A stretch of DNA of 63,840 bases, counting the filler, from an uncultured Methanosarcinales archaeon (lineage in GTDB: Archaea > Nanobdellota > Nanobdellia > Woesearchaeales > CAYSVS01): the NCBI GenBank assembly GCA_964434475.1. It is 8 parts of 8 records of this genome, joined end to end, with 100 filler letters (N's around TTAATTAATTAA, not from the genome) between each part and the next. Parts side by side here need not be neighbours in the genome. Positions count along the whole stretch, not along the records: positions 17,923 to 26,664 come from CAYSVS010000055.1; 7 more parts are not named here. One strand, 5' to 3'. Shown in pieces: positions 12,308 to 33,907 of the stretch. Numbering within the stretch: position 1 is the stretch's first letter; each line of letters opens with the position of its first letter. The position numbers and the translations under genes are program-made. The notes beneath the pieces were generated by a model. The model saw nothing but the letters and a program-made list of their open reading frames with translations. It made no database searches and was not told the DNA's origin.

Positions 12308-12309
12308 TT

Positions 12310-12991: not shown

Positions 12992-13000
12992 TTTTACATA

Positions 13001-13425: not shown

Positions 13426-13492
13426 ACTACCCTTCGTAGCAAACTACAGGATATACGCTAGATTTTTTGCTACGCAATCGGAATTTTTAAGA
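13426..13492 (+). repeat. REP-like dispersed repeat, second copy
   Basis: Similar to 84-151. Confidence 0.5.
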
Positions 13493-13816: not shown

Positions 13817-14017
13817 ATGAAAAGATTTATCGCATTGATTATTATCCTTATGCTATGCGGATGTATGAGTCAAACAGAAACAGATAAAGACAATAAAGAT
13901 AAGGGAAAGCAGAAAGAGTATACTGAAGACACCCACATAGATAATATAATAAAGGAAGATATGAATTGTACAGATATAGACCAAATAACATCAGATCTAG
14001 AAGAGCTGGAGTGGTAG
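13817..14017 (+). CDS. Small putative lipoprotein
   Basis: Signal peptide ending LCGC; acidic tail. Confidence 0.65.
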   Translation: MKRFIALIIILMLCGCMSQTETDKDNKDKGKQKEYTEDTHIDNIIKEDMNCTDIDQITSDLEELEW

Positions 14018-14039
14018 GTATTTTTCTTATTTCTTATAT

Positions 14040-15596
14040 TTAACTTATCTTTTCTCCAATAATACTTCTTAACATATGTCCGGTGACTTTTACGTCGATA
14101 AACTTATCTAGCTCTAATCTACCAGATATTCCAACGACAAGAGGATAAGTACCAACTTGTCTTGCAAATGTTGTTTTTCCGTCATATATCTCTGTTCTTA
14201 GATTTCTTAATATTGTTCCTTCTGGCACCAATTTCTTTAGCATAGGCCAATCAATCTCTTGCCTTATCTCATTTCTCCATTTCCAATAGTATTTCTTGTT
14301 CTTCTTGATATACTTGTTCTTAACGCTATTGAACAAAGGCGTGCCAGGAAAAACAACAACCTGTCTTATGTTTATCCTTCTGATCAACAGATTTTCATCA
14401 AGCATTTTCTTAAGCCAACACATATTTTTTTCGTGTGTTGCTTTGCTTTCTCTTTCCAATCCAAACAAGATGTTAATCCCAGGAAGGAATTTAGGCATCC
14501 CATTTTTCCCTCTTTCTGCACCATATTTGTTCATGATCTTCACTGCACAGCAGGTAGTTTCAGGATCTGAATTCAGATTGTTAGCCTTGATAACCACAGA
14601 ATCAAACGACTCTTGACCCATTGCAGCTATGTTGCCTTCTGTACAATATCTTGTTACAAGCTTTACTTTATCTTCTGTAACATTTGCAGGATTTATGTTA
14701 TCTATATGCAATATTTCTGAATATTTGCTTGCGTTCTTCAATAGTTTATCTAGTTGAGGATATGAGAACAAGTCAGATTGCTTTCCTATCCTGAAATTAT
14801 TTATGCCTTGTCTGCTCAATGCTTTAATCTCTTCTATTATGTCGTCAACATCTCTGTTCTCTATCTTTTGCTTTAAAGGTTCTGTGCAGAAGCTGCACCC
14901 TGTTTTTCTTGAGCAGCCTTTTGCAGTCTCTATCTCTGCTATCAGAAATCCTTTAGAATTTGCACAAGGATATTGATTGACAATATCAGCACCCAACACA
15001 CTTATCTTTTTTATCTTATCGTATGTATAGCTTATTTCTTGAATTTCAGAGAAATTAGTTTTTAACAATTCTTTCAACTTTATCTCAATATCTGGCACAA
15101 TAAAATTAAATACCCCTTTTTTAATCTCAGTAGCCATCTTTCCTCCAAACAACCCTGTTCCTGATTTTGATGCTGGACCAGCAAGTATTTTTGGGTTTAG
15201 ATTGATGTTTGATATCTTCTTGACAATATCACCTGCTTCTTTCAATGTGCCTGGCAAAGCCGACAAATATTTTCCAGGAGTATGAACTCCGCATACGATT
15301 ATGAACAAGTCTGAACTTTTAAGTATATTCTCTATGTTATCATAATTCTTAGATAAGTTTCTTACCTTGATATCTGTTTTCATAAAGGAAAAGTTTTTTT
15401 TGTTTATATCAACTTTGCTCATCCCTTTATATTTTTCTGAAAAGAATGCCCTTAGGTCATCTATCGTCAAATATACTGCTTTGTTTCCTGATTCAATTAT
15501 GCTTCCAGCTATGTATCTAGGATAAGTACCAATGTATGGAATTACTCCTAATCCTGCAGGCTCGTCTGTGTAGCAGTCTATGATTGTAATTTTCAT
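14040..15596 (-). CDS. COG1031-type radical SAM protein with C-terminal TRAM-like domain
   Basis: IIDCYTDEPAGLGVIPYIGTYPRY; ETAKGCSRKTGCSFCTEP; IRRINIRQV; ARQVGTYPLVVG. Confidence 0.88.
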   Translation of the reverse strand: MKITIIDCYTDEPAGLGVIPYIGTYPRYIAGSIIESGNKAVYLTIDDLRAFFSEKYKGMSKVDINKKNFSFMKTDIKVRNLSKNYDNIENILKSSDLFIIVCGVHTPGKYLSALPGTLKEAGDIVKKISNINLNPKILAGPASKSGTGLFGGKMATEIKKGVFNFIVPDIEIKLKELLKTNFSEIQEISYTYDKIKKISVLGADIVNQYPCANSKGFLIAEIETAKGCSRKTGCSFCTEPLKQKIENRDVDDIIEEIKALSRQGINNFRIGKQSDLFSYPQLDKLLKNASKYSEILHIDNINPANVTEDKVKLVTRYCTEGNIAAMGQESFDSVVIKANNLNSDPETTCCAVKIMNKYGAERGKNGMPKFLPGINILFGLERESKATHEKNMCWLKKMLDENLLIRRINIRQVVVFPGTPLFNSVKNKYIKKNKKYYWKWRNEIRQEIDWPMLKKLVPEGTILRNLRTEIYDGKTTFARQVGTYPLVVGISGRLELDKFIDVKVTGHMLRSIIGEKIS

Positions 15597-15620
15597 CTTA
15601 TACCTTATTTTAAATTTTTT

Positions 15621-16463
15621 TCAAATGCTTTGGATAAAATCACAAATTACTTTGAAACTTCTCTCTCTATCGTGATCTATGATAAATACATGATACGCAT
15701 CTTTTACCCAATATATTTTCCTTTTTTTTGAATTAACATTCCTAAATATATACCCAACACTCTTTTCATCGACACCAAAGTCTGCAGTAGATTGCATTAT
15801 CAATACTGGTGCAACAACTTTTGGAAGCAATCTTTTACATAATTTTATGCCTTTTACCAAATCAAGCAATTTGCTTAGAGGAACAACAGGATAGGTTATC
15901 CTATGTTTTATTATTTCTCTATCCAGTTCCTTATGATACCATTTTTTTTTGTAGTTAAAGATAAAATAATTAACTATAAAATATATCTTTGCAATAATCT
16001 TTTTTTTATTATATATCGGTGTACCCATAGAAATAACCCCGTCAACATCATGCTTTGCCGCCAACATTAATGCAAGGTTTCCTCCGAAACTGTCTCCTCC
16101 GACTATAACTTTAGTGCAATGTTTTTTTAACTCCTTAAGTCCGTTCTCTGCACTTTTTATCCAATCTTTTAAATTAGTGGCGGTCATATTTTCAGGACAT
16201 GTTCCATGACCTTTGAGCAAAATTGCATTGACAGATATATTTCTGTCCGCTAAATATTGACCTAAATATTTACCATCATACGCAGAGGAAGTAAATCCAT
16301 GTATGAGCAATATTCCTGTCTTTCCGCGCTTATAGAAAAAAGGTTCTGCTCCAGGAATGATCTGGGTCATCTTTTTGTATCTAGGTTTTCTTATTATTAT
16401 CCTTAACTTGTTCAATATAGAATACACAAATAACATCCAGAGTACTTCCACAATCATTTTCAA
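15621..16463 (-). CDS. Carboxylesterase, alpha/beta hydrolase (YvaK/Est30-like); start probably at MTQII (16370)
   Basis: LLIHGFTSS, LKGHGT, GDSFGG nucleophile elbow, Asp and His of the triad. Confidence 0.88.
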   Translation of the reverse strand: MKMIVEVLWMLFVYSILNKLRIIIRKPRYKKMTQIIPGAEPFFYKRGKTGILLIHGFTSSAYDGKYLGQYLADRNISVNAILLKGHGTCPENMTATNLKDWIKSAENGLKELKKHCTKVIVGGDSFGGNLALMLAAKHDVDGVISMGTPIYNKKKIIAKIYFIVNYFIFNYKKKWYHKELDREIIKHRITYPVVPLSKLLDLVKGIKLCKRLLPKVVAPVLIMQSTADFGVDEKSVGYIFRNVNSKKRKIYWVKDAYHVFIIDHDRERSFKVICDFIQSI

Positions 16464-17822: not shown

Positions 17823-18000
17823 NNNNNNNNNNNNNNNNNNNNNNNNNNNNNNNNNNNNNNNNNNNNTTAATTAATTAANNNNNNNNNNNNNNNNNNNNNN
17901 NNNNNNNNNNNNNNNNNNNNNNTTATTTAACTATTAATTAAAAGTGATAGGAAATCTTTGCAAATTCACACAGATAACAAATCTATGCGACGCGAAAATA

Positions 18001-18105
18001 AATTGAAACAAACATCTCAAATCGCTGTTATACACCCCAAGCGAAGCGAGAGTGCAGCATTTCCGACTGACTGAAAGGAAGGAGAGTAATTTTTAGTGGC
18101 GTTCC
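18001..18105 (-). repeat. attC-like repeat family member
   Basis: Shares GAACGCC.CTAAAA.TTACTCT and TATAACAG...ATGTT modules with 43612-43710, 49236-49338 and 50766-50846. Confidence 0.5.
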
Positions 18106-18191
18106 TTTAAACTTGTAAGAGCCTTAGAGAACATACTTATGGGAGTTCCGTTCAATCAATGCGAACAAAGTGATTCTTTAAGAACAAATAT

Positions 18192-19307
18192 TTAGGAGCG
18201 AGAAAACATGTATTTATCTTCACAACAACTATTCATATATTTATCACAACTAACTGCTCTCATATTGCTCAAATCATTCCATAAATTGGGAAGTGTTATT
18301 TCAAGAACATTTCCTATGGGTTTAGCAGTGAAATCGCAAGGATGCATCTCTCCATATGGGCTTATATAAAAATAATTTCTACCTGCTGAACATCCAAATG
18401 TTGATTGGTCTCTAAACCTAGCATAGCAAAAAATTCCAGGAAAATCTTTTTTTGCATTATATTTATCTACTATTGCAAATAATCTCTTTTTATCTATCTT
18501 TTTGTTGTTGATATCTTTTTTGTGGGAATACATACCAACAGGTAATGTATCAAAAAGGATTAATTCATTTACTTTAAGTCTTTTAGCTAAATGAATCATT
18601 TTTTCAAAACTTCCATCTTCTATATCATCCTGAATAACAGTTGTTGATATTGCTGTAAGCAAACCAATTCTTTGGGCCTTTTTTATTCCTTTAATTGCTT
18701 TTTCAAAAAGTCCTGGAAGATGTCTATATCTGTCATGTTTTTCAGCTGTTGTTCCATCTAAACTTACAATTATCATCATCAAGCCAGATTTTTTTAATTT
18801 ATCACATTTTTCTTCTAGAAACCATCCGTTTGTAAAAATACTCGAAGATGATTTATCTTTATCAATTGAGGATATAATTTCAGAAAGCTCATCTCTTAAA
18901 AGAGGTTCGCCTCCAACAAAATTTATTACAGAACAACCAAAATCTTGGCAAGATTTAATTATCTCTTTTACTTGATTAATGCCCAATACTTTTTGTTTTT
19001 TCTTGTCCATAGCAGTATAGAAACTGCAATGTTCACATTTAGCATTACATTTATCTGTCACTGCTATATTAGCCATACCAGGTAAAGGTTTTTGCATCAA
19101 ATTACTCATAAGCCTTCTTGCAAGAGTATTTCCTAAAGCTTTACTAAGACCCGGAGTCAGAAAAGCCGAATAGACAGGATGCCCTTTAAACCATCCAATT
19201 ATTTTGTGATGTCCTAAATAATAATCAAGGAAGTAATCATTAAATGAATTAAGATAACTGCCTGTATTTTTTAATGTTGATAATATATATCTAATTTTAT
19301 TCAGCAT
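18192..19307 (-). CDS. Radical SAM protein with SPASM/Twitch-like C-terminus
   Basis: CNAKCEHC, GGEPLL, FTNG, VSLDG, GCSAGR...PC. Confidence 0.92.
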   Translation of the reverse strand: MLNKIRYILSTLKNTGSYLNSFNDYFLDYYLGHHKIIGWFKGHPVYSAFLTPGLSKALGNTLARRLMSNLMQKPLPGMANIAVTDKCNAKCEHCSFYTAMDKKKQKVLGINQVKEIIKSCQDFGCSVINFVGGEPLLRDELSEIISSIDKDKSSSSIFTNGWFLEEKCDKLKKSGLMMIIVSLDGTTAEKHDRYRHLPGLFEKAIKGIKKAQRIGLLTAISTTVIQDDIEDGSFEKMIHLAKRLKVNELILFDTLPVGMYSHKKDINNKKIDKKRLFAIVDKYNAKKDFPGIFCYARFRDQSTFGCSAGRNYFYISPYGEMHPCDFTAKPIGNVLEITLPNLWNDLSNMRAVSCDKYMNSCCEDKYMFSRS

Positions 19308-19355
19308 AATAACCTATTTAAAGACATAGATTATAAATCTTTTGTTGGGCATCGA

Positions 19356-19604
19356 CTATCCTAAGCATATACCCAATACAGTGAATAATTTAACAGCCAA
19401 AAGAGAAATAGACCAAATAAAAATAAAAAGAGAGAATATAACTATAAAGCTATCCTTAAAATTAAGTTGGATAATTTTTTTCTCTAATTTTAAAAATAAT
19501 ATTATTAGGATAATATAGAAAATTAGCAATAGTGGAATTAAATGTAATATGAAACAATTCATTGTATCTGGAGTAAAACAAATAGCAGCTTCGTCTAATA
19601 TCAT
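19356..19604 (-). CDS. Small membrane protein
   Basis: Two hydrophobic segments; tightly packed in the operon. Confidence 0.55.
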   Translation of the reverse strand: MILDEAAICFTPDTMNCFILHLIPLLLIFYIILIILFLKLEKKIIQLNFKDSFIVIFSLFIFIWSISLLAVKLFTVLGICLG

Positions 19605-19607
19605 TTT

Positions 19608-19856
19608 TTACTTTTTAGAAATCTTTCCTAATTTCTTATAAATAGCAATACCTGCAAAAATCACTAAGGGTATTGCAATTGGCCAGGCTAAAATGAATAA
19701 ACATATGATTATAGGCATTATTGCAATTGAACCACCTATTATAGTAATCAATATTACTATAGTCAAAAAAATTCTTCCTACTTTTTTGTCTGCTGAATCT
19801 TTACTATGACTTTCAGGAACTTCTGCTGAAATACCTTGAGGTGCATAATCATCCAT
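19608..19856 (-). CDS. Small membrane protein
   Basis: Two hydrophobic segments; GAGGTGA RBS; overlaps upstream stop. Confidence 0.7.
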   Translation of the reverse strand: MDDYAPQGISAEVPESHSKDSADKKVGRIFLTIVILITIIGGSIAIMPIIICLFILAWPIAIPLVIFAGIAIYKKLGKISKK

Positions 19857-20376
19857 TTAATTTCACCTCAAATAAATGATTAACATACTTATAGAATGCT
19901 AATATCAATGCTGTAAATAATGGTACTGCATATATTGCTTCAAGCGGAACTGTTGTTAGTGGAATCGTAAATCCAGTCATTGTTTCAGTAAGAATTGGCG
20001 CATACTTTCTTATGCCTGTCTCTAATAACATCATTTCTAAAGGGACTGTTATTGCTTCGCTAAATAGAAGATACAACCAGAATCTTTTTCTTTCTGGTAG
20101 GTGGTAGAATGCATAATCTACTATCAATATAGAGACCATAAATATATTAACCCACCCAAGTGTGATTATCCATGTTATATCCTTATACAGATATGCCCAA
20201 GAGTCAAATCCTATATTTATCCACATAGACTCACTCATCAATTCAAAAAGCAAAACTCCCACAAATAAGATTATCAATTTACGAAGTATATTTTTGTGAC
20301 CTTTCTTTTTCATAAAGACGTATATGCCTACTGTAAAGAGAATGATAAAGATTTCGAGAAATAAGGCAAAACTCAT
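19849..20376 (-). CDS. Membrane protein, paralogue of 20373-20915; remote lycopene-cyclase/CruF-like motifs
   Basis: LLFE...W...WAYLYKDITWIITLGW; LE...GIRKY; VPLEAIY. Confidence 0.7.
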   Translation of the reverse strand: MSFALFLEIFIILFTVGIYVFMKKKGHKNILRKLIILFVGVLLFELMSESMWINIGFDSWAYLYKDITWIITLGWVNIFMVSILIVDYAFYHLPERKRFWLYLLFSEAITVPLEMMLLETGIRKYAPILTETMTGFTIPLTTVPLEAIYAVPLFTALILAFYKYVNHLFEVKLNG

Positions 20377-20915
20377 TTCTTTTTACCTCTATTTGATTTT
20401 AGCTTTTGTTTTGTTTTTTCATCAAAACAAATTTCCCAATATCTAACAAAAGATACCATTAATGCCATAAAAACAGGGATATAATATAAAGCTTCGATTG
20501 GCACTTTACCATAACCAAGCATTATGCCAGACAATGATTGTTTAACTGCTTCTGGGTAGAATCTTATTTCAAGACCAACTACAACCCATTCAGCAAAAAA
20601 TCCTATTATTCCTATGAAAATAACCGAAATAACATATCTAAACCTTTCTGTAAGGTTTGGTAAATAAAGATTAATTAGTTCCATACAAACAGTAATTATT
20701 CCAGCCCAACCAATAGTAAGAATCCAATTGATATCTAGATACAAATATGACCATGGCTCTAGATTATGATTTAACCACAATGCTTGGGTAAAATATTCAA
20801 AAAGTAATACAGCAACAAAAGCTAAGCCAAATCTTCTTAATACTTTGTTATTTAACTTATAAAGAATAAGTAAAAATAATGCTACTAAAGAAATGATCGA
20901 TATCTCAAATATCAT
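20373..20915 (-). CDS. Membrane protein, paralogue of 19849-20376; remote lycopene-cyclase/CruF-like motifs
   Basis: LLFE...W...WSYLYLDINWILTIGW; AEW...EIRFY; KVPIEALY. Confidence 0.7.
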   Translation of the reverse strand: MIFEISIISLVALFLLILYKLNNKVLRRFGLAFVAVLLFEYFTQALWLNHNLEPWSYLYLDINWILTIGWAGIITVCMELINLYLPNLTERFRYVISVIFIGIIGFFAEWVVVGLEIRFYPEAVKQSLSGIMLGYGKVPIEALYYIPVFMALMVSFVRYWEICFDEKTKQKLKSNRGKKK

Positions 20916-20967
20916 ATTACTTATAATTTGCTAATATTTATATATAAATGTTTGGTTTTTAAATGCT

Positions 20968-23361
20968 ATGGTGAAGTTAGCATATAACAGAATAGGAAAT
21001 AAGGCAAAAAATTTATTATTACTTAGGAATTCTTACAACGTTCCAGCTTTTTTCACTATTTCATCTGATAATATACATAATATTCTAAAAAAAATAGGAG
21101 TTACAAAAAATGATTTAGATAAGGCTTTTGAAAGCGATCCTAAAAATAGAAAATTTATAAGAGATATGATTAGCAAAAATAAGATAAATCTGAATTTTCC
21201 AAACTTAAGGCAATTAGGTAAGAAACTAATTATCCGTTCATCTGCTTTAGGAGAAGATGGAAAAAAGTATAGTTTTGCAGGGATATATGAATCAAAAATT
21301 ACAGAAAACTTTAACCAATTTGAAGAAGATTTCAAGTATGTCTTAAGTTCTGCATTTTCAGAAAGAGTGTGGCATTACTGCAAACAGATTGGGATGCAAA
21401 CTTTCCCTGAGATTTCCTTAATAGTCCAAGATTATATTGATCCAGAATATTCAGGCATTACCTTTACTCAAACTAAATATGATAATAAAAAAGGTATGCT
21501 AATAAATGCAGTTAAGGGAAGTGGGGAAAATGCTGTTCTAGGAAAGGGTATTTTAGAAATATTCATTCATAATAATAAGATTCCAAGAAGCAAAATACCT
21601 AATAAAATCTTAGTTGAAGTTGCTAAGAGTTCCAGACAAATAGAATCCTACTTTAATAAACCTCGGGATATAGAATGGTGTTATGCAGATGATAAGCTAT
21701 GGGTATTACAATCAAGAGCAATAACAAAGAATGTGCATGAACAAATCAATGTATGGGATAATTCTAATATTGCTGAAAGTTATAGTGGGATTGTATTGCC
21801 ATTGACATGCTCTTTTGCTCAGTTTATCTATACGCAAGTATATAGAAATTTAGCAAGAACATCGAATATAAGCCCTAACAAAATTGAAAAATACTCTGAT
21901 GTATTTGAGAATCTGCTTGGATTTTTTTATGGTAGATTTTATTATAATATCCTAAATTGGTATAAGATGCTTACTCTATTCCCTGGTTATGAAAGAAATA
22001 AGAAAAATCTAGATATGATGATTTCAGCAAAAAACAGGACTAAATTGAATAAAGAACATTATCTAAATGTAAATTTTAGTGATAAGCTTCGTTATTACCC
22101 TTACATTCTTTATAGAATCTTTAGATTTGAAAAAGACATTAAACAATTTAAAAATCATGTGAAAAACTATCTGGAACATGTTAAAGAGAATCAGTTTGAG
22201 CAAGCTGAATTAAAAGAATTATGGGGATGGTTTAAAGATTTTCAGGAAAACCTACTTAAAAAATGGAGCATCACAGTTGATAATGACTTTTTAGCCATGA
22301 CCTGGTTTGGTTTTTTTAAAAAATATTCTAAGAAATATGGGCTGAATGAGAGCCAAATTTTATCTCAGATTACTTCAATTAAATCTTTGGTTAGTGCTCA
22401 ACAAGTAAAAGCTCTTAAAGAATTATCAGACGAATTTCATAAGAATAAGAAACTAATAGACATTGCCAAATCTTCTAAATGGGACTTATGTTATAAAGAG
22501 ATGATGAAAGATACTAATTTGAATAATATGATTACAGACTATTTAAAAATATACGGTGGAAGATTTGCAAATGAACTTAAGCTGGAAGCAAAAGACCTTG
22601 ATTCTGATCCTGAATTTTTCCCTCAATTACTATATCAATATAAAACAAATAATAAGAAAATGATTTTTAATGAAGAAAAAATAAATCTTCCCTTTTTCAA
22701 CCGTTTTTTACTGAATATTCTCTCAAAGAAATCAAAGCACTATTTAAAACATAGAGAAGAATTAAGGTTATTAAGATCTCAGACATTCAGTTATACGAGA
22801 AGATTATTTATTGCTATTGGAAAAATATTTGAAAAAAGGAGAAAGATAGATAATTTTAATGATATTTTTTATTTGAAATTAGATGAAATCGAAACTGCTA
22901 TCAAAGAGAAGAATACGAAATTCAGGAGAATAATACTTAAGAGAAAAGAAGAGTATGCAGAATATAAAAATATTGAATTAGACAATGTGTTAGTTACTAG
23001 AGGCGAAGAAATGCCAAAACCAAAGCATTTTAAGAAAATAAATGCTTCAAATAAATTAAAAGGCATTGGATGTTCATTAGGTTCTGTATCTGGAAAAATA
23101 ACAATTATGCATGAATTCAGATTACCTAAAAAACATTTAGAAATTGTTGTTGTTAAACATACAGATCCAGGATGGACCCCTTTATTTGGGATATGTAAAG
23201 GACTGATTGTGGAAAATGGAGGTTTATTATCTCATGCTGCTATAATTTCAAGAGAATTAAATCTTCCTTGCATAATCGGAGTTGAAAATGCAACAAAATT
23301 ATTAAAAGATGGAAGGTATATCACTATGGATGGTAGTACTGGAGAAATAAACATTGAATGA
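20968..23361 (+). CDS. PEP-synthase-related phosphotransferase with rifampin-phosphotransferase-like architecture
   Basis: ATP-grasp RSSALGED..SFAG, DIEW, LQSRAIT; middle domain WDNSNIAESY; His swivel TDPGWTPLF...GGLLSHAAIISRE. Confidence 0.9.
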   Translation: MVKLAYNRIGNKAKNLLLLRNSYNVPAFFTISSDNIHNILKKIGVTKNDLDKAFESDPKNRKFIRDMISKNKINLNFPNLRQLGKKLIIRSSALGEDGKKYSFAGIYESKITENFNQFEEDFKYVLSSAFSERVWHYCKQIGMQTFPEISLIVQDYIDPEYSGITFTQTKYDNKKGMLINAVKGSGENAVLGKGILEIFIHNNKIPRSKIPNKILVEVAKSSRQIESYFNKPRDIEWCYADDKLWVLQSRAITKNVHEQINVWDNSNIAESYSGIVLPLTCSFAQFIYTQVYRNLARTSNISPNKIEKYSDVFENLLGFFYGRFYYNILNWYKMLTLFPGYERNKKNLDMMISAKNRTKLNKEHYLNVNFSDKLRYYPYILYRIFRFEKDIKQFKNHVKNYLEHVKENQFEQAELKELWGWFKDFQENLLKKWSITVDNDFLAMTWFGFFKKYSKKYGLNESQILSQITSIKSLVSAQQVKALKELSDEFHKNKKLIDIAKSSKWDLCYKEMMKDTNLNNMITDYLKIYGGRFANELKLEAKDLDSDPEFFPQLLYQYKTNNKKMIFNEEKINLPFFNRFLLNILSKKSKHYLKHREELRLLRSQTFSYTRRLFIAIGKIFEKRRKIDNFNDIFYLKLDEIETAIKEKNTKFRRIILKRKEEYAEYKNIELDNVLVTRGEEMPKPKHFKKINASNKLKGIGCSLGSVSGKITIMHEFRLPKKHLEIVVVKHTDPGWTPLFGICKGLIVENGGLLSHAAIISRELNLPCIIGVENATKLLKDGRYITMDGSTGEINIE

Positions 23362-24368
23362 AAATGGAAATAATAGGATATGAGCATGAAAAAAAGAGAA
23401 TTGAAGAGTATATTGGTTTTTTAAGAATTCATTATTCTCAAGATTTAAGGATTTCTAATCAATTAAAAAGGATCAAGAACTTGTTAGATAAAGATAATCC
23501 TTTTTTTGAATATGGAGATATCAAGAATTTTCTTGTTAAAGAGGATGAAAAGACACTAGGCCATTGTTCAGCAATTATAGACAAAAGAAATAAAGATATT
23601 GGATTAATTGGATTTTATGATTGTGTAAAAAATCAAAAAGTAAGCCATTTGTTATTAGATAAATGCATAAATTGGTTGAAAACGAAAGGGTGTTCAAAAA
23701 TTAGAGGTCCTGTAAACCTAACAATATGGTGTGATTATAGATTTATATCTAAATGCAAAAGAAAGCCAGATTTATTTGATCCTTTTAGTAAAGATTATTA
23801 TATCGACTTTTGGAAGAAAAAGGGATTTACAAATGCAGGAAAATATGTTTCTGCTGTAAGACAAGACTTTAATTATGTTATTCCTTATACAAAGGAAGCT
23901 TATGAAAATTTATCTGAACAGGGATTCAAATTAAGAAAATTCAATAATGATTCGGATGATCTAAAATTAATCTTAGATTTAGCGAATAAGATATTTGCTC
24001 AAAGCTGGAATTTTGTTCCGTTGTCTTATGAAGAATTTAGATTTCTTTATGAAGATATTATCAATAATGTTGATCTGTCATTTATTGAAATTGCAGAAGA
24101 TAAAGATGGAAAACCTGTTGGTTTTTGTTTTACTTTACCGCACCCTTACAATAAGGAACAGATAATTCTTAAGACAATCGGGGTTTTACCTTATTTGAGA
24201 AAACAAAATATAGCAGGAGCTTTGCTTTATTCTCAGCATACTAAAGCAAAAAAAGAAGGATTTAGGGAATTTTATTATCCATTGATCAGAGTTGGTAATG
24301 ATGTAACCAAATTTCCTTATGAAGGATATGAACTAATAACAGAATATGAAGTTTTTGAACTTAGTTAA
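23358..24368 (+). CDS. GNAT-fold N-acyltransferase (YghO-like, two GNAT lobes)
   Basis: GLIGFYDC, KIRGPVN, SWNFVP, KTIGVLPYLRKQNIAGAL; ATGA overlap with the kinase. Confidence 0.8.
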   Translation: MKMEIIGYEHEKKRIEEYIGFLRIHYSQDLRISNQLKRIKNLLDKDNPFFEYGDIKNFLVKEDEKTLGHCSAIIDKRNKDIGLIGFYDCVKNQKVSHLLLDKCINWLKTKGCSKIRGPVNLTIWCDYRFISKCKRKPDLFDPFSKDYYIDFWKKKGFTNAGKYVSAVRQDFNYVIPYTKEAYENLSEQGFKLRKFNNDSDDLKLILDLANKIFAQSWNFVPLSYEEFRFLYEDIINNVDLSFIEIAEDKDGKPVGFCFTLPHPYNKEQIILKTIGVLPYLRKQNIAGALLYSQHTKAKKEGFREFYYPLIRVGNDVTKFPYEGYELITEYEVFELS

Positions 24369-26046
24369 GGTATATATTTTCTCCAGATTTCACTCTATTT
24401 AATAAGCATGATGGAACAAGCTTATTATCATATAGCATTGCATCGGGACAGCTATTACAAATATTCCATGAATCTTCAATCTTATCAGGAGCATCTATTA
24501 AAAGAACAACTTGTGAATTAATATAATCTCCATTGTATCTTTTTGCATTTTTGAGTATCGCTCTCACAGATTTATTGGTAAATGCAGGCAATAATTTTGA
24601 TATTTTGATGGGCTTATTCTTGATTGTGATAAAATGCTTATTTTTCTTTTTATAATATCTTTGCTGTATAGATTTGTAAATATCTTTGTCAAAAGATCCT
24701 AGATAATTTCCGTTTTTATAAGCAGACAAAGAAAAAAGCCATGAAATATCCTTTGATTTATTTTTGCCAAGATATGCGCAATAAGATAACCCAAATGCAT
24801 CTTTGACAGCTGAACTAGCTTCTTCCATGGTTAATGCTAACTCTTTATCCAGTGTTTTGTTAGGGAGCATTTCCTTTATTGTGGTAAATACAACCAAATT
24901 AATAATATCTGAATTTTTCTTATAAAAATCTGCTAAGATGGGCAAATCTACAATGTTCTTTTTAGAAAGAGGCATGATGAAACCAAGATTTACTCCTCCG
25001 ATCTTCCTGAATAATTCACAATATTTCTTTCTTATATTATTCATTTCCTTTTCTGATTCAGAATTCCTTTGATATTTGTCAATATGAATAATAAATTCTG
25101 TTGCTCCGTATTTTTTCAAATTTCTTAATCTTTCTTCATTTAGTGCTACAGCATTCGTATATATTTTTGTTTTCAGGTTTTTTGAACTGATATAGCTTAT
25201 TAGTTTTTCAATATGGGGATATAGTAAAGGTTCTCCGCCTGCTAATGATATTGACTGCACGTTTCTGTTATCAATAAACCAATCAACCTGTTTTTTTAGA
25301 TTTTGTAAGTCTTCATGTTTGTTTTTATGGCTTTTTTCTGCTAATCCTCTGTAACATCCAGGACATTTAAATTGACAGAATGTTGTTGGTTCAATCCATC
25401 CATTTGGATTATTGTAAATAGACCAGTTTAATTCAAATAAATTGTCTTTATTTAATAAAGGTTGATTGATAATTATATCATAAGTTTCATCTGCTAAAGG
25501 CTGAAGATCTTCTGGAAAAGATGAATGCCTAAATGGTTTTTTGAATCCAATATTAACATGAGGATTATTATAGGCAATATTAACAGGGAAAATTAAGCTG
25601 TTTTTTACTTCTCTATTTAGATAATTAGCTCCTACTTTTACTTTATACTTCTTATTTTCTTGCTCAAGTTTTCCTGATGGAAATATAAATATTGTTTCTC
25701 CTTTGTTTAAAAGTAGCTTTGATTTCTCAAGAACTGATTTTCCGTCATTTTGTTTTGTAGATATACACCCATAAAGCAATAAAAAAGGTTTTAATAGAAT
25801 ATTCTTCATGTATTTTTCTGCTGTTATAAATCTTAAAGGTATTAGTTTGATGAAGTTTTTTAATGGAATGGAATATGATATCAAGAATGGATCGATCTTC
25901 TTAGGATGGTTGGCAATAATTATGTGAGTTTTGTTTTTTTCTAGTTTAAAATCAATGTTTGTATTAACTTGGAAAATTATTTTTAAAGGTATTCCTATTA
26001 AAAAATAGGTTAAAAATTGCCAGAACATTACTATTATATTTTTCAT
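24361..26046 (-). CDS. Fusion of a PlsC-type lysophospholipid acyltransferase and a radical SAM domain
   Basis: N-half ANHPKKIDP and IFPSG; C-half CQFKCPGC, GGEPLL, CNSCPD...PSC. Confidence 0.88.
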   Translation of the reverse strand: MKNIIVMFWQFLTYFLIGIPLKIIFQVNTNIDFKLEKNKTHIIIANHPKKIDPFLISYSIPLKNFIKLIPLRFITAEKYMKNILLKPFLLLYGCISTKQNDGKSVLEKSKLLLNKGETIFIFPSGKLEQENKKYKVKVGANYLNREVKNSLIFPVNIAYNNPHVNIGFKKPFRHSSFPEDLQPLADETYDIIINQPLLNKDNLFELNWSIYNNPNGWIEPTTFCQFKCPGCYRGLAEKSHKNKHEDLQNLKKQVDWFIDNRNVQSISLAGGEPLLYPHIEKLISYISSKNLKTKIYTNAVALNEERLRNLKKYGATEFIIHIDKYQRNSESEKEMNNIRKKYCELFRKIGGVNLGFIMPLSKKNIVDLPILADFYKKNSDIINLVVFTTIKEMLPNKTLDKELALTMEEASSAVKDAFGLSYCAYLGKNKSKDISWLFSLSAYKNGNYLGSFDKDIYKSIQQRYYKKKNKHFITIKNKPIKISKLLPAFTNKSVRAILKNAKRYNGDYINSQVVLLIDAPDKIEDSWNICNSCPDAMLYDNKLVPSCLLNRVKSGENIYLN

Positions 26047-26067
26047 ATGGTGAATAACCTCTCATTA

Positions 26068-26388
26068 CTATTTAAATATATTTACTAAAATTAAAATTAT
26101 ATCTGAGCCGACATAAAATAAAATGGCATTAATTTGAAAGTAAATACTTGAAATTTTATTTTTTAAAAAATAAATCATTATTAGTGATATTAAACAAACA
26201 ATGAAAAAAGTGAAAGATATAATATAAAAAAGATAACCTACATTTAATAAAAATAAAATCCATAATAAAAATAAGAATGCTAATATAATAATTAGAGAAT
26301 ATATTATACATGATTTTTTTAAACCAAATCTAACAGAATATGTGTCGTTTCCTTGAGTTTCTTCTCTAGTAACTTTAATTTTCCGATT
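26068..26388 (-). CDS. C-terminal fragment of a UbiA-prenyltransferase-like membrane protein (5' part lost at chimeric junction)
   Basis: RKIKVTREETQGNDTYSVRFG followed by TM helices; upstream sequence switches abruptly to high GC. Confidence 0.55.
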   Translation of the reverse strand, partial: NRKIKVTREETQGNDTYSVRFGLKKSCIIYSLIIILAFLFLLWILFLLNVGYLFYIISFTFFIVCLISLIMIYFLKNKISSIYFQINAILFYVGSDIILILVNIFK

Positions 26389-26664
26389 CTGGTCGCCTAC
26401 CCACAGCAAGACACCTTCGTCTGTATGAACCCGCTCAACCCCGACTCCGACGGCGACGGCCTGCTCGACGGCGTCGAGGACCTCAACCACGACGGCATCT
26501 TCGACTTCGAGCCGGGTGATTTCGACCACGCGGGCCAGGGGCCCATCCCCGGCCCGGCGCAGGACAACCCCGAGGAGACCAACCCCTGCGACCCCGACAC
26601 CGACGACGACGGGCTCACGGACTTCGACGAGCGCAACCAGCCCAACCCGCCGGCGGGCACGACC
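26389..26664 (+). other. High-GC foreign fragment encoding Ca-binding DxDxDG(L)xD repeats
   Basis: DSDGDGLLDGVED, DTDDDGLTDFDE; third positions almost all G/C, unlike the rest of the window. Confidence 0.8.
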
Positions 26665-28583: not shown

Positions 28584-29438
28584 TTACTCAAATTCCAGTC
28601 TGAATAGCAGTATTTTATGGTATAAGTTTTCAATCAATTCCTTATCCCATCTCTTTATTTTACGAACTATCTGATTTTTATTCAAGTTTAGATCCATCAA
28701 TTGATTTATTTTCAGCATCAGACCATATATTTTTTCTTTTGTATATTTTGACCTTGGTAGGTTTTGATTCAATATATCCATATTTATGCTTATTTTTTCG
28801 ATAGTGTTTTCATCTATTCTTTTTTTCTTTAATTCAGAAAGTATTGTTCTTTTTGCAGTTCCTTTTTTAAGTTCATCAAAAATAAATTCAATTATATTGG
28901 TGTTTTTTTTCTTTCTAATATTTTTCTTTGACTTTAATATTTTTTTATGTTCATGATATTTTTCATACCCTAAGAATATTATCAATAAGCTAACTATTAT
29001 GAAAAAGAGATATTTAGCGATATCGTATGTTTTCTGGTTTATCGCTGTTTTATCTTTTATTTTTAGTTTGATGTTCTGTTCTAATTTTATTTTATATTCT
29101 AAATTTTTTATTATTGGTTCCTTGCTTTCTATACTTAACTTAGGAGAATATTCTATAGGAAAAGCATTTTCAGAAACATCCAATTTTATTTCAATATAAT
29201 ATGGAACGTTTTTCTTTAATGTTGTTTTATTAGGATATATCTCAAACCACTCTTTATATTTGTCTTCTATCTTGAGTAAGAATGTGACATTATCATATCG
29301 CTTTTCTGTTAAAGCAAATCTTTTGCTGTATGTTTTTCCTGCTTCAACTTCTCCAAAATCTATATTCGATATAGATATGGCGGATGCATTTGGTATGATT
29401 ATCATACAAATAACAAGATAGAATATTAATTTATTCAT
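28584..29438 (-). CDS. Secreted single-pass membrane hypothetical protein
   Basis: Signal peptide, IDFGEV Ig-like domain, TM, basic cytoplasmic part. Confidence 0.7.
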   Translation of the reverse strand: MNKLIFYLVICMIIIPNASAISISNIDFGEVEAGKTYSKRFALTEKRYDNVTFLLKIEDKYKEWFEIYPNKTTLKKNVPYYIEIKLDVSENAFPIEYSPKLSIESKEPIIKNLEYKIKLEQNIKLKIKDKTAINQKTYDIAKYLFFIIVSLLIIFLGYEKYHEHKKILKSKKNIRKKKNTNIIEFIFDELKKGTAKRTILSELKKKRIDENTIEKISINMDILNQNLPRSKYTKEKIYGLMLKINQLMDLNLNKNQIVRKIKRWDKELIENLYHKILLFRLEFE

Positions 29439-30457
29439 TCTTTACCTTTGTGCTTAACAATCAATCTTTCAATATCTTGTTTTATACTTGTTTTCAATCT
29501 TGCTCCTATTATTTGAACGATTCTGCTTGCTGCATAGCTTCCAATCTTTCCGCACAATGCAATATCCTTATTATTGCTCAATCCGTAAAGAAAGCCTGCT
29601 GCAAACATATCTCCTGCACCCGTTGTATCTACAGCATCAACAGGAAATCCTGATATCTTATAGAGCATATCGCCTTTCTTGATCAAACTGCCGTCCTTGC
29701 CTATCTTGACGATTGCAATATTGCATAATTTAGCGATTTCATGCACTGCTTCTGTTGGTTCTAACTCAGTCAAAGCTTTTGCTTCTTCCTCGTTTACAAA
29801 AACTATGTCTGCATATGTTTTCACTATTGACAAAAGCTCTGCATGATTTCTTCTTATCAAGTTAGGGTCTGCTAGATCAATACTTATCTTAACGCTATTC
29901 GCTTTCGCTATATCCATGGCATGCAGTGCTGTTTCCTTCAGCAAAGGTTCTTCCAATTGATAGCCTGTAAGATGCAGGAATCCGCTTTGCTTTATATCAT
30001 CCTCAAATATGTCTTCTTTCATCAATTTTAGAGCAACTCCAAGATGTACTGCAAATGTCCTTTCACTGTCAGGAGTTATAAAACTGATAGCTTTACCTGT
30101 AATACCTTGAACCTTTGCAAGTCTATGTGCCATGCTTGCTTTATCTAATGTTTGCTCATAATACATTGCATGTTCATCCTCTCCTACTTTTCCGCAAAAG
30201 ACAACATTTCCGCCTAAATTAGCTATGCCTGCTAATGTGTTTGCAGTAGAATCTCCTGGAGCTATTTTAACATCAAACTCTTTTATCTTTTCCTGTATGT
30301 TTATCAATTGCTCTTCACTGACAAGATGCATGTTGCCCTTTTCAAGATTAAGTTCCATAAGCGTATTTTCATTTACTTTGATAATCATATCTACAAGCGG
30401 ATTTCCTATCCCTACGACATCATGTTTCATTTTATTATCACCTTGTTTTTTGATCAT
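29435..30457 (-). CDS. PfkB-family carbohydrate/adenosine kinase (start probably at MKHDV)
   Basis: GIGNPLVD, PGDSTANT, NEEEA, VDTTGAGDMFAAGF. Confidence 0.92.
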   Translation of the reverse strand: MIKKQGDNKMKHDVVGIGNPLVDMIIKVNENTLMELNLEKGNMHLVSEEQLINIQEKIKEFDVKIAPGDSTANTLAGIANLGGNVVFCGKVGEDEHAMYYEQTLDKASMAHRLAKVQGITGKAISFITPDSERTFAVHLGVALKLMKEDIFEDDIKQSGFLHLTGYQLEEPLLKETALHAMDIAKANSVKISIDLADPNLIRRNHAELLSIVKTYADIVFVNEEEAKALTELEPTEAVHEIAKLCNIAIVKIGKDGSLIKKGDMLYKISGFPVDAVDTTGAGDMFAAGFLYGLSNNKDIALCGKIGSYAASRIVQIIGARLKTSIKQDIERLIVKHKGKE

Positions 30458-30522
30458 GTGTTTTTTTTGATAAGCAATATATAAACTTAACCTATATCTT
30501 TTTTTTATATGGTGCTTTGTCT

Positions 30523-31530
30523 TTATTTGCTATATAATATATTATCTATGGCTTGCGATGCATAGTTGATATAATATTGTATGTTGCTTTTTTCATCAAA
30601 TAATTTTTGTGTATATTTTATCACGTTTTTGTTTCTGCATGCCATATTGCTTAAGTTTGCGTTTCTTTCTTGAAGCATATTTATTAATTTCTTGCAGTTC
30701 ATCTTATTATCCTGTGCATAAAAATATATCATGGGAGCTGTTATCGTAATATTTTTTATCTGTTTTTCTCTTATCTTAGCCCCTATATTTTTGACATTAT
30801 TTTTTTTATCATATACTATAGGATTTCCTATTGTCAGATAAGCTTTAGGCTCAACTTCATATTTATTTGGTGTTTTGGCTATCGCATATATGTCCATCAG
30901 AGCATTCAATAATCCTGCAATAGGTGGTGGAAATCTTTCTTTGTTCTTGATGTTTTTTTTAAAAGTCCAGTCTTCAAAAACCCTGCTGTAATCTATAGTG
31001 GCGGGATATATATATGTTTTTTTGCTGCTTGTCTTTAAAGCATTGCAAACCAGTTTTAATAATCCTGTTTCTGCTTCCTTTACAAACCCATCTTTTGTTC
31101 TTCCGTCTTGTATTGTTACGAATATTGGGTATTTGTTCAAGTCTGAATTTGTTAGCAGTTTCTTAAATCCTTTGATATACTCTCTGTTGCTTGTAATAAG
31201 CTTTCTGTCCACAGCTATCACACCTATCTTTCTTATATCCATAAGCAATGTCTTACCTATCAAAGGAGTAGTTATTCCAGGAATAAAAAGGTTTTTCCCT
31301 CCCAAAAATTTCATTATCTTATTCTTTTTCTTGTACATCGTATATCCTACTAAAATTTGATCTAGCTCGCTTCTGTGTGTAGGTACAATAATTATATTTG
31401 AATCTTCATCAACTATATTTTCTATGCCTTTTATCTCTATTCCTGAGAAAACTTTATTCAGATAATCTGTAACTCTTTTCTCCTCTAACTGGTAATATTT
31501 TTCATCTATGAGATCTTCTATTAGTTTCAT
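30523..31530 (-). CDS. PlsB-like glycerol-3-phosphate/DHAP acyltransferase (catalytic domain only)
   Basis: PTHRSELD (HX4D), GGKNL, QDGRTKDG, IYPATIDYSRVFED blocks. Confidence 0.82.
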   Translation of the reverse strand: MKLIEDLIDEKYYQLEEKRVTDYLNKVFSGIEIKGIENIVDEDSNIIIVPTHRSELDQILVGYTMYKKKNKIMKFLGGKNLFIPGITTPLIGKTLLMDIRKIGVIAVDRKLITSNREYIKGFKKLLTNSDLNKYPIFVTIQDGRTKDGFVKEAETGLLKLVCNALKTSSKKTYIYPATIDYSRVFEDWTFKKNIKNKERFPPPIAGLLNALMDIYAIAKTPNKYEVEPKAYLTIGNPIVYDKKNNVKNIGAKIREKQIKNITITAPMIYFYAQDNKMNCKKLINMLQERNANLSNMACRNKNVIKYTQKLFDEKSNIQYYINYASQAIDNILYSK

Positions 31531-32576
31531 TTTTTATAGTAATCTTCTTTGCTTCTTTTCAGAATATCATCGACAGCTGTTAAACAGTCCTTTTTATCGT
31601 ATATTACGTGATATGCTTCTTCTATGAATGGAGCTTTTATGCCGCAATTTTTCATTATTTTATATAGTGTACTTATAGTATCTGGTCCTTCTGGTCTTTG
31701 TTTTATTCTGTCAAAGTATTTTATTATCTGTTCGATGCTCTTTCCTTCCCCTATCATCCTTCCTACTTGGCTGTTTCTTCCTACTTTTGATGTAACATCA
31801 AGATCACCTATTCCTGCAGGACCTAAGATTGTTCTTTTTGATGATATTCTTCTATATTCTCCGAAATAATGTCTTGTTTTATCTAGTATGTATTCCATCT
31901 CTTTAAGCCTATATCTTAGAAGAGCAGATTCTGTGTTTTTTCCGAATCTTTTGTTTTTATTTTCCTTGCTTTTAACAAGATAATCTCCTATGCCTATTAT
32001 TATTGCATAAGCGTTCTTTAAAGCTCCGCAAACCTGTATTCCAACAATATCTTTGCTTGGCTCAAGTACAAAAAAATCTTTGTTGTAGAATAATCCTATC
32101 AAACCTTTTGCAAGCTTTTTTTTTCTTGATGCTAATGTGGTTTCTGTTATCACTTCTTTGTTTACTTCAACAGCTATATTTCCTCCGCTGATAGCTGCAA
32201 ATCTTTTTTCATCTATGTCTAGCTTATTTTCTAGATATTGGCTTGTTACCTTGATTTTATTCTTTATCTTAAGAAAACCTTTGGAAGCGCATATAGCTAT
32301 AGCTTTATCTTTTATGTTTTCTTTTTTTATCTTTTTTATTGTATCAGGCAGAAATTTAGTATTCACAGCAAATACAAGAAAATCTTTCTCAGCTATCGCT
32401 TCATTGATATCTTCTGTGATGTATATCTTTTTATCTGGTTTAAATTCAGGATATGTATGTGTCTTGTCATAAACCCACAACGTAACATCCTTGCCGTTTT
32501 TTGCAAGAATATTAGCTAATGTAATAGACCATGGTCCTCCTCCTATCTGTGCTATCTTTCTGTTGTTCATCTTCAA
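31527..32576 (-). CDS. gpsA: NAD(P)H-dependent sn-glycerol-3-phosphate dehydrogenase
   Basis: GGGPW, ASKG, SGGNIAVE, GALKNAYAI, AGIGDL, GRN, PEG. Confidence 0.9.
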   Translation of the reverse strand: MKMNNRKIAQIGGGPWSITLANILAKNGKDVTLWVYDKTHTYPEFKPDKKIYITEDINEAIAEKDFLVFAVNTKFLPDTIKKIKKENIKDKAIAICASKGFLKIKNKIKVTSQYLENKLDIDEKRFAAISGGNIAVEVNKEVITETTLASRKKKLAKGLIGLFYNKDFFVLEPSKDIVGIQVCGALKNAYAIIIGIGDYLVKSKENKNKRFGKNTESALLRYRLKEMEYILDKTRHYFGEYRRISSKRTILGPAGIGDLDVTSKVGRNSQVGRMIGEGKSIEQIIKYFDRIKQRPEGPDTISTLYKIMKNCGIKAPFIEEAYHVIYDKKDCLTAVDDILKRSKEDYYKK

Positions 32577-32587
32577 TAATCTAATCC

Positions 32588-33907
32588 TTAAATCTGATTT
32601 TTCTTATAGAGCAATACAGCATTGTGTCCGCCGAATCCTGCTGAGATTTTCATTCCGTATATGATTTCAGGAGCGCTTAATGTATTATTAGGTATTATAT
32701 TAAGACTACATTCAGGATCAAAATTACTATAGTTTGCAGTTGGCGGCAATGTTCCATATTTTAATGCAAGTGCCATAGCTATGAATTCAACAGCTCCTGT
32801 TGCTCCTAGCAGGTGTCCTGTATTTCCTTTTGTTGAGCTTATCCTTAGTTTCTCGGAATATTTTCCAAAAACATTCCTTAATGCTTTAGTTTCTGTTTTG
32901 TCATTTAGAGGAGTAGATGTTCCATGGCAATTGACATACAAAATGTCTGCAATATCTGCTGGTTTTAAACCTGCTTCTTCAATTGCACAATTTATCGCTT
33001 TACTTAATGATTTAGCTTCAGGATCGGGTTGTGTTGGATTCAATGCATCAGATGTTCCGCAATATCCTTCTATTGTCCCATATATGTCTGCTTTTCTTTT
33101 TTTTGCAGTTTTGTAATTTTCAAGAACAATAGCTCCTGCTCCTTCGCCCATAACAAATCCGTCTCTTTCTTTATCAAAAGGTCTGCTTGCAGTTTCAGGA
33201 TCTTCATTTCTCCTGCTTGTAGCTTCAGCATTTGCGAAAGACCCTATACCTATCTCAGTTATTGAAGCTTCACTTCCGCCTGTTACTGCCATCTTATATT
33301 TGTGAGGAAATGCTTTTATCTTTTCATAGCAATTGCCTATTGCGTGAGTAGAACTTGCGCACGCTGTAGTAATACAGGCTGTTTCTCCTTTTAAACCATA
33401 CATTTGAGATATTGTTCCTACTGCTGCATTTGCCATTATAGTTGAGATCAATGTAGGGCTTATTCTTTTTGCAGCAAGCATCTTATCAGATACATCTTTT
33501 CCTTCTTGTGATTTTTGTTTAAATATATATTTTTCAAACTCTTTGCATATTGTAGTTATTCCTCCTATTCCTGACGCGAATAACGAAAACTTATCGTATT
33601 CATTGTAATCCATAGAATCATGTTTAGCGTTTTCCATGGCTTCATTTGAGGCAACAATAGCATATTTGACAAAATCATCTAGTCTTCTGATGTTTATTCC
33701 TCTCTCTTTTTTAAGAAAATTTGAAAATTCTTTGTTAATACCAAAATCTTTTAACTCTGCTGCTAACTGTGTGTGGAAATTAGAAGCATCAAATTTAGTT
33801 ATTTTGTTTATCCCTACTTTTTTGTTCATCAAACTTTTCCAATAATCTTCTAAGTTGTTTCCTATAGGTGTAACAGCACCAAATCCTGTAACTGCAACTC
33901 TTGCCAT
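32588..33907 (-). CDS. fabF: Beta-ketoacyl-ACP synthase II
   Basis: RVAVTGFG, TACASS, SRPFDKERDGFVMGEGAG, HGTST, KGNTGHLLGA, GFGGHN (Cys-His-His intact). Confidence 0.93.
   Translation of the reverse strand: MARVAVTGFGAVTPIGNNLEDYWKSLMNKKVGINKITKFDASNFHTQLAAELKDFGINKEFSNFLKKERGINIRRLDDFVKYAIVASNEAMENAKHDSMDYNEYDKFSLFASGIGGITTICKEFEKYIFKQKSQEGKDVSDKMLAAKRISPTLISTIMANAAVGTISQMYGLKGETACITTACASSTHAIGNCYEKIKAFPHKYKMAVTGGSEASITEIGIGSFANAEATSRRNEDPETASRPFDKERDGFVMGEGAGAIVLENYKTAKKRKADIYGTIEGYCGTSDALNPTQPDPEAKSLSKAINCAIEEAGLKPADIADILYVNCHGTSTPLNDKTETKALRNVFGKYSEKLRISSTKGNTGHLLGATGAVEFIAMALALKYGTLPPTANYSNFDPECSLNIIPNNTLSAPEIIYGMKISAGFGGHNAVLLYKKNQI

Follow-up and report, generated by a model that had tools for sequence, protein, structure and literature searches.

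What might a single archaeal gene do that encodes both a PlsC-type acyltransferase and a radical S-adenosylmethionine (SAM) enzyme, and is such a gene real? The question is raised by a locus within a 63,840-nt stretch of DNA (hereafter the window, filler letters included) from the genome of an uncultured archaeon of the Woesearchaeales (deposited as a Methanosarcinales archaeon, GCA_964434475.1). An initial annotation had described one uninterrupted open reading frame (ORF) of 561 codons in which these two domains meet near position 25450. We find this ORF on the minus strand, opening with an ATG preceded by a Shine-Dalgarno-like GAGG and free of internal stops, and all of the motifs that the annotation had listed (NHPKKID, FPSG, CQFKCPGC, GGEP and a terminal CxxC...C) are present. 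Both domains exceed their Pfam gathering cut-offs: Acyltransferase (PF01553) on residues 34-157 with 47.1 bits against 23 (E 2.7e-12), and Radical_SAM (PF04055) on residues 218-341 with 68.7 bits against 29.5 (E 8.9e-19), with Fer4_12 as an additional match. The domain boundary falls at residues ~195-205 (window ~25430-25460), where it had been expected, and neither a stop nor a frameshift separates the acyltransferase half (AT, residues 1-198) from the radical SAM half (RS, residues 199-561). An AlphaFold2 model of the whole protein, built from 85 aligned sequences, reached a mean predicted local distance difference test score (pLDDT) of 93.5 and a predicted template modelling score of 0.83. 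Together with the comparisons below, these data lead us to propose, with a probability of roughly 0.55, that the protein is a bifunctional, membrane-associated enzyme of lipid remodelling, in which acyl transfer is coupled to radical chemistry on the lipid.

The fusion is genuine and not an assembly artefact, because it recurs in six other proteins and at four other loci and is identical in a second assembly. A search of 5.8 billion clustered proteins returned six further full-length fused proteins (P0002-P0007, 557-572 aa), which carry both domains at 52-81% identity and 99-100% coverage, as well as one fragment (P0008); every motif is kept in the alignment of fused proteins. Besides the window, the fused frame is found at loci L021 (a duplicate of L018), L101, L102 and L104. 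In a separate assembly, that of run X1, a 2552-nt contig spans the whole ORF and its junction and matches window positions 23841-26384 with 0 differing letters and 0 gaps. Weighing against this last line of support, it consists of contigs rather than raw reads, and X1 is probably the source sample. Two genes joined by an assembly or sequencing error would offer another explanation: the corresponding genes are separate and overlapping in 11 related loci, such that a one-base error could mimic a fusion, and the contig that carries our gene also has a chimeric tail (described below). With the same frame in proteins as divergent as 52-81% identity, at four other loci and in an identical second assembly, and with all fused sequences in one clade, we find this explanation barely credible.

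Relatives in which the two halves are encoded separately suggest how the fusion may have come about. Exhaustive HMMER searches identified stand-alone proteins of ~190-205 aa that match residues 1-195 with up to 54% identity, and many stand-alone radical SAM proteins of ~360-390 aa that match residues ~199-561. At 11 loci (L105-L107, L110, L112-L115, L118, L119 and L136) the AT gene lies directly upstream of the RS gene in a different frame, an arrangement also seen on five short contigs (L154, L166-L169). The AT stop codon falls 8-20 nt inside the RS gene in 11 of 11 of these split loci; the two genes thus overlap, and therefore one small change would fuse them. The fusion may have arisen through loss of the AT stop codon at this overlap. 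Among 82 distinct RS sequences, 5 are fused, 10 are split, 60 have no adjacent AT and 7 lie at contig edges. In a maximum-likelihood tree of 47 of them (all those with cluster context plus 15 chosen outgroups, the other 35 being left out), the five fused sequences fall within one clade (support 97/95) that also contains the near-identical sequences L022 and L103, which lack an AT, and the bacterial L023; the tree requires two state changes, for example one fusion and one loss.

The fused protein is rare. Among 401 genomes from the phylum only 4 have a real homologue, one of them being the genome of the window, and no homologue was found in a genome of the same genus; the nearest relatives are labelled Woesearchaeota or Nanoarchaeota. 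The host genomes are reduced (0.5-1.5 Mb). The RS family is spread over DPANN archaea, Candidate Phyla Radiation (CPR) bacteria and some anaerobes, including the cultured bacterium Mangrovibacterium lignilyticum, whose 33% identical member (L033) provides an experimental entry point.

We compared the AT half with acyltransferases of known structure. Residues 1-198 of the model match PlsC of Thermotoga maritima (5kym) with a Z-score of 14.4-15.3 over 178-190 aligned residues, with human GPAT1 (Z 14.2), squash GPAT (Z 11.9) and PatA (Z 11.6) as other matches, and of all PDB sequences a profile of the AT subfamily matched 5kym alone (E 2.9e-5), in an alignment that pairs motifs I, III and IV. The two proteins share the same fold, their HX4D, FPxG and Pro-containing motifs align, and both have an N-terminal hydrophobic helix; in the fused protein, this helix (residues 3-24) is the sole Kyte-Doolittle hydrophobic stretch. 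Unlike PlsC, the AT domain is only ~195 aa long, does not conserve the motif III Glu, and misses the cut-off of the PlsC-specific model TIGR00530 (AGP_acyltrn; 45.6 against 102.95 bits). It belongs to its own subfamily of ~190-205-aa proteins.

Conservation within this subfamily bears on whether the AT half is an active enzyme. Residues N46, H47 and D52 are invariant in 27 of 27 and 31 of 31 members of two subfamily alignments; across the 27 members of the first (38% mean column identity), G125 and G139 are likewise invariant and R72, F73 and P154 nearly so. Given the invariance of N46, H47, D52, G125 and G139, the active site looks viable, with the HX4D motif intact as the initial annotation had supposed. 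The wording FPEG is typical of motif III in acyltransferases of the LPLAT/AGPAT type. The F, P and G are conserved here; the Glu is replaced by Ser in the fused protein and varies across the subfamily (T in 7 of the 27 members, E in 7, R in 4, S in 3, G in 2, Q in 2, N in 1 and A in 1). The suggestion that FPSG might point to an acceptor other than lysophosphatidic acid therefore loses its force, as position 124 varies freely and says little about the acceptor. An idle AT domain, serving as a mere membrane anchor or lipid-binding module that brings RS to its substrate, would fit the RS sequences that do without an AT (60 of 82), the missing motif III Glu, and a domain shorter than PlsC with a single N-terminal helix. 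The five invariant residues are instead what is expected of a catalytically constrained enzyme, and we judge an idle domain very unlikely.

The RS half belongs to an unnamed family of ~365-aa proteins whose conserved positions fall into two groups. The first is that of a canonical radical SAM core: in an alignment of 85 members, C224, C228 and C231 are present in 85, G271 in 85 and E272 in 83. The second lies near the C-terminus, where C530, C533 and C547 are found in 84, 83 and 84 of the 85 members. No universal fourth Cys was found in this alignment (C343 occurs in 68 of 85); D535 is present in 80 and M537, four residues past the second Cys, in 59. No match to SPASM (PF13186) was found in the fused protein at E values up to 0.1, the neighboring radical SAM/SPASM protein having one, and a search of PDB sequences with the C-terminal 79 residues returned only 2w0m (E 0.042), which we judged a chance match. 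Structural comparison of residues 199-561 returned radical SAM enzymes as all of its top matches, led by GDGT-MAS (7tol; VIA-align Z 25.0, r.m.s.d. 3.4, 312 aligned residues, model residues 190-555 against chain residues 25-479). The next match, viperin (Z 19.4, 224 aligned residues), follows after a gap of 5.6 Z units, and BlsE (Z 15.7) and DesII (Z 14.7) rank lower. A search independent of Foldseek gave the same ranking (GDGT-MAS 7tom, Z 24.6), and Foldseek itself matched GDGT-MAS with E 4.5e-13 over 428 columns. A profile of the RS family searched against PDB sequences also placed 7tol first (E 1.4e-16; next match 1.1e-10). Matches in the ESM Atlas were to unnamed radical SAM clusters only.

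The likeness to Tes/GDGT-MAS (7TOL, 7TOM, NF045702) lies in the radical SAM core and in a C-terminal domain behind it that has three conserved Cys, and the difference in an aligned identity of only ~16-17% and in what precedes the core. The position of the N-terminal metal domains of Tes is taken by AT in the fusion and by nothing in most RS members: the stand-alone members begin ~20 residues ahead of the CX3CX2C motif, and the sole Cys N-terminal to that motif in the fused protein, C94, lies within the AT domain. The RS family is not Tes but, judged by its modelled fold, a stripped-down structural relative of it. According to two reports (PMC9433317; PMC13459092), GDGT-MAS binds lipid tails and captures the lipid radical on a C-terminal [4Fe-4S] cluster, whose ligands are three Cys and a labile Met; when expressed in Escherichia coli, the enzyme binds and co-purifies with phospholipids of that host. 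Two other classes of radical SAM enzyme were set aside: HpnH-like adenosylation (HpnH model, 32.6 bits against a cut-off of 225; MqnE, Z 13), and B12-dependent lipid methylation or desaturation, as the protein has no B12-binding domain (for the B12 families, see 10.1101/2025.10.20.683597).

The idea of coupled acyl transfer and radical chemistry, which the initial annotation had put forward, is supported by the GDGT-MAS-like fold of RS, by the overlapping genes in relatives and by the lipid-related gene cluster described below, with the reaction itself following by inference only. In the mechanism that we favor, AT, working at the surface of the membrane, would attach a fatty acyl chain to a glycerolipid intermediate by an ester bond, the acceptor being perhaps the product of the upstream UbiA or a scavenged lysolipid. 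RS would then cleave SAM, and the resulting 5'-deoxyadenosyl radical would abstract H from an unactivated carbon, presumably in a hydrocarbon chain of the same lipid, with the three-Cys C-terminal site holding an auxiliary cluster as in GDGT-MAS. The outcome could be C-C coupling or macrocyclisation, a cross-link or a desaturation; Tes-like coupling is only one possibility. The remaining genes of the cluster would build or modify the head group. We hold the assignment to lipid chemistry to be probable, and give about even odds to RS acting on the chain rather than on the head group.

The genes that surround AT and RS form a recurrent cluster. In its DPANN-type order, a YegS/BmrU lipid kinase is followed by a DUF3419 protein, in some loci by an NAD_binding_4 reductase, and then by UbiA, AT and RS; beyond RS come a tandem GNAT and a PEP-synthase-like (phosphoenolpyruvate synthase-like) protein on the opposite strand, two membrane paralogues and often a radical SAM/SPASM protein (Table 1). 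The last of these is 54-67% identical in L101, L105, L106, L108, L111 and L136 and 35% identical in the Gracilibacteria-type L027 and L123. The tandem GNAT was modelled with a pLDDT of 93.8, and its best fold matches are MAB_4324 (Z 24.2), glucosamine N-acetyltransferase (Z 22.4) and MshD (Z 20.3). CPR-type loci (Minisyncoccia and metagenome contigs) keep DUF3419, UbiA, RS, the PEP-synthase-like protein and GNAT but are without AT. Gracilibacteria-type loci, which use genetic code 25, add a CDP-alcohol phosphatidyltransferase and have AT fused to a different membrane domain, and Bacteroidales-type loci retain RS and GNAT only, without UbiA or DUF3419. Distant RS clades adjoin DLH-type hydrolases (6 loci), GDSL lipases (3), PMT_2 transferases (2) and an NAD_binding_4 reductase (1); the bacterial L023 RS adjoins an acyl-AMP ligase and an MBOAT, and the L033 RS a KASIII-like gene.

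Table 1. Features of the fused gene and its neighbors, in window coordinates
Feature	Position	Strand	Basis or remark
Fused gene, 561 aa plus stop codon	24361..26046	-	ORF with ATG start, without internal stop
N-terminal hydrophobic helix, likely membrane anchor	25975..26043	-	Residues 2-24 helical in model; Kyte-Doolittle residues 3-24
PlsC/LPLAT-type acyltransferase domain (AT), residues 1-198	25453..26046	-	PF01553; fold match to PlsC 5kym
HX4D catalytic motif, H47...D52 within NHPKKID (residues 46-52)	25891..25908	-	Invariant in AT subfamily
FPSG, motif III, residues 122-125	25672..25683	-	G125 invariant, position 124 variable
Radical SAM domain (RS), residues 199-561	24364..25452	-	PF04055; fold match to GDGT-MAS
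CX3CX2C motif CQFKCPGC, residues 224-231 (C224, C228, C231)	25354..25377	-	RS family conservation
GGEP, SAM-binding motif, residues 270-273	25228..25239	-	RS family conservation
C-terminal CxxC-x13-C (CNSC...C; C530, C533, C547)	24406..24459	-	Candidate three-Cys auxiliary Fe-S site
Tandem-GNAT N-acyltransferase	23358..24368	+	Fold model; convergent with fused gene, 8-nt end overlap; syntenic in relatives
PEP-synthase-like phosphotransferase, PPDK_N and swivel domain, without PEP/pyruvate barrel	20968..23361	+	Syntenic in DPANN and CPR loci
Polytopic membrane protein, 180 aa, no known family	20373..20915	-	Syntenic
Paralogous polytopic membrane protein, 175 aa	19849..20376	-	
Radical SAM/SPASM protein, 371 aa	18192..19307	-	Recurs at cluster end
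UbiA prenyltransferase, C-terminal third, cut by contig break	26068..26352	-	Weak UbiA match; tblastn

Only contig C55 (CAYSVS010000055.1, window 17923-26664) is the real neighborhood of the fused gene. The window as a whole consists of contigs C53-C59 and C78 of one metagenome-assembled genome, with runs of N at 8887, 12363, 17823, 26665, 34887, 43041, 45558, 51082 and 59057 and 12-base linkers between N runs; two genes with an N run between them are not neighbors. The tail of C55 (26353-26664) has a G+C content of 0.64, against 0.28 for the ORF and 0.17-0.28 for the adjoining sequence, and encodes acidic Asp/Gly-rich repeats (DSDGDGLLDG...). The X1 contig ends at 26384, another run (X2) covers the tail alone, and the tail is matched by many other contigs with joints, repeats and other composition. 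It looks like a chimeric join that cuts the UbiA gene. Using tblastn with the UbiA proteins of relatives, we located residues 198-295 in the fragment listed in Table 1 and residues 1-200 at the start of contig C60, outside the window, where positions 1-2511 encode the N-terminal 200 residues of UbiA and then DUF3419 and a YegS-type lipid kinase. Because the remaining UbiA residues are found there, C60 continues C55 past the chimeric tail.

Several observations weigh against the proposed activity. The RS family is uncharacterised biochemically, and its sequence similarity to Tes is generic: the fused protein misses the cut-off of the Tes model NF045702 by a wide distance (38.4-38.9 against 450 bits), and on that model it is outscored by the unrelated radical SAM/SPASM neighbor (61 bits). 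The rubredoxin and N-terminal [4Fe-4S] domains of Tes are absent from it. The C-terminal three-Cys site is a candidate auxiliary Fe-S cluster site on the basis of sequence. For AT, the variable motif III Glu counts on the same side, as does the absence of an adjacent AT from 60 of the 82 distinct RS sequences, by which AT appears as an accessory rather than a fixed partner of RS. Finally, the widest-ranging partner of RS is the tandem GNAT, whose fold relatives act on sugar or thiol amines, a partnership that favors head-group chemistry as much as tail chemistry.

RS has no more faithful partner than the tandem GNAT, and for this reason we consider action on the polar head group to be the main rival. 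Here, RS would modify an amino-acid-like moiety installed by DUF3419/BtaA, or another amine, by epimerisation, dehydrogenation, decarboxylation or C-C formation, and AT would still acylate the backbone. RS and GNAT are neighbors in the cluster loci and in the Bacteroidales-type loci, which contribute 9 distinct GNAT-only sequences; the fold relatives of GNAT N-acylate amino sugars and amines, and a distant fusion (P0120) joins a radical SAM domain to a GNAT. Enzymes of small polar substrates are also among the fold neighbors of RS, as the scores of viperin, BlsE and DesII attest. The lipid-tail enzyme GDGT-MAS is nonetheless the best match by more than 5 Z units and ~90 more aligned residues, and other RS clades adjoin acyl-chain rather than head-group enzymes. 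On balance, head-group chemistry in place of chain chemistry seems to us unlikely, if less so than any of the other alternatives.

We also asked whether the cluster makes a different kind of hydrophobic product: a secondary metabolite with prenyl or acyl groups, for instance, or a surface glycoconjugate linked to a polyprenyl, which the fusion would acylate and radically tailor. The architecture of the PEP-synthase-like protein includes, by NCBIfam matches, rifamycin phosphotransferase and prodigiosin ligases; L023 lies among glycosyltransferase, carbamoyltransferase, MBOAT and acyl-AMP ligase genes; PMT_2 glycosyltransferases adjoin two loci; and the cluster is rare and patchy, as the 4 of 401 genomes illustrate. 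However, the lipid kinase, DUF3419, UbiA, PlsC-type AT and, in one lineage, the CDP-alcohol phosphatidyltransferase are glycerolipid enzymes, and the hosts have reduced genomes of 0.5-1.5 Mb, in which secondary metabolism is unusual. A non-lipid product is in our view quite improbable, and we return to lipid remodelling as the preferred reading.

What lipid might be remodelled? An algal betaine lipid synthase is annotated as a member of DUF3419 (PMC10685587). This likeness to the betaine-lipid pathway (BtaA/BTA1) suggests, by analogy, a SAM-derived amino-acid head group on a diacylglycerol-like lipid; no NCBIfam model matches the cluster's DUF3419 protein. The cluster differs from that pathway in that no BtaB-type methyltransferase is seen in it, and the tandem GNAT and PEP-synthase-like phosphotransferase are found instead. 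One can imagine an unrecognised membrane-lipid pathway of DPANN and CPR organisms, which are regarded as dependent on the lipids of their hosts. In this pathway UbiA adds a prenyl chain and the PlsC-type AT an acyl chain to one backbone, yielding a hybrid ether/ester lipid; RS, as a minimal Tes, would join or cross-link chains at unactivated carbons, making the lipid macrocyclic or membrane-spanning, and DUF3419, GNAT and the PEP-synthase-like protein would build an N-acylated amino-acid-type head group. As a complete scheme this is speculative and, we think, improbable. If it were true, the fused protein would be the first enzyme in which acyl transfer is coupled to radical C-C chemistry on one and the same lipid.

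The lipid genes of the host offer some context. The genome (1.5 Mb in 148 contigs, 97% complete) is that of an archaeon: it encodes ribosomal protein S8e, a family matched in the four archaeal control genomes only. PcrB/GGGPS, CarS, Fe-ADH_2 (glycerol 1-phosphate dehydrogenase) and PlsY were not detected in it at this completeness, and with GGGPS, CarS and glycerol 1-phosphate dehydrogenase undetected, the substrate of Tes may not be made by the cell. On contig C56 (window 29435-33907, minus strand), we noted a PfkB kinase, a second PlsC-like acyltransferase (335 aa), an NAD-dependent glycerol 3-phosphate dehydrogenase (GpsA) and a FabF-type ketoacyl synthase. The lipid genes in this row are of a bacterial type, although the genome is archaeal.

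In the usual view, neither DPANN archaea nor CPR bacteria can synthesise the lipids of their own membranes. For both groups, the fused gene and its cluster constitute a concrete candidate for lipid remodelling that can be put to the test. The cluster is conserved in archaeal as well as bacterial lineages and, by bringing together enzymes that form esters, transfer prenyl groups and use radicals, has a bearing on the 'lipid divide'. The fusion also serves as a Rosetta-stone link that ties an uncharacterised and widespread RS family, with hundreds of members in anaerobes, to lipid-linked chemistry. A full-text literature search, with most subscription journals outside its scope, found neither a PlsC-radical SAM fusion nor this cluster described, and we rate the fusion as a new domain architecture made from known families, which it places in a new context.

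Earlier surveys touch on the same organisms. Surveys of Tes and Mss homologues report matches in DPANN and candidate phyla (PMC8941075; PMC13159169; PMC11868695); the Tes survey thresholds given there (E <1e-50, length >400 aa) are such that the RS family would fall outside them. Mss is described in PMC13159169 and PMC11868695 as a radical SAM enzyme by which acyl chains are joined at their tails, with homologues in candidate phyla, the FCB group, Chloroflexi, deltaproteobacteria and DPANN. This reported list of taxa resembles the spread of the RS family.

We made several further observations at individual loci. In the window, the interval from the gene of the 175-aa membrane protein to that of the radical SAM/SPASM protein holds two 82-aa ORFs (19356-19856), putative genes that encode strongly hydrophobic stretches. 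In the Gracilibacteria-type L027 (4429-16114), a 359-aa protein combines a polytopic membrane domain with the acyltransferase, and a 323-aa membrane protein resembles the two small membrane paralogues joined, by eye sharing the motif YLY.DI.W. Locus L019 (G326:C6, ~8581-15976) encodes three tandem RS paralogues of 556, 389 and 389 aa, the first with a ~200-aa extension of no Pfam family, followed by a B12-binding radical SAM protein, an Lgt-like diacylglyceryl transferase and an alpha/beta hydrolase. The distant radical SAM-GNAT fusion P0120 is 583 aa long, and in P0165 (344 aa) a GNAT stretch is followed by sequence that matches the C-terminal half of the RS family; both proteins may represent further links between RS and GNAT.

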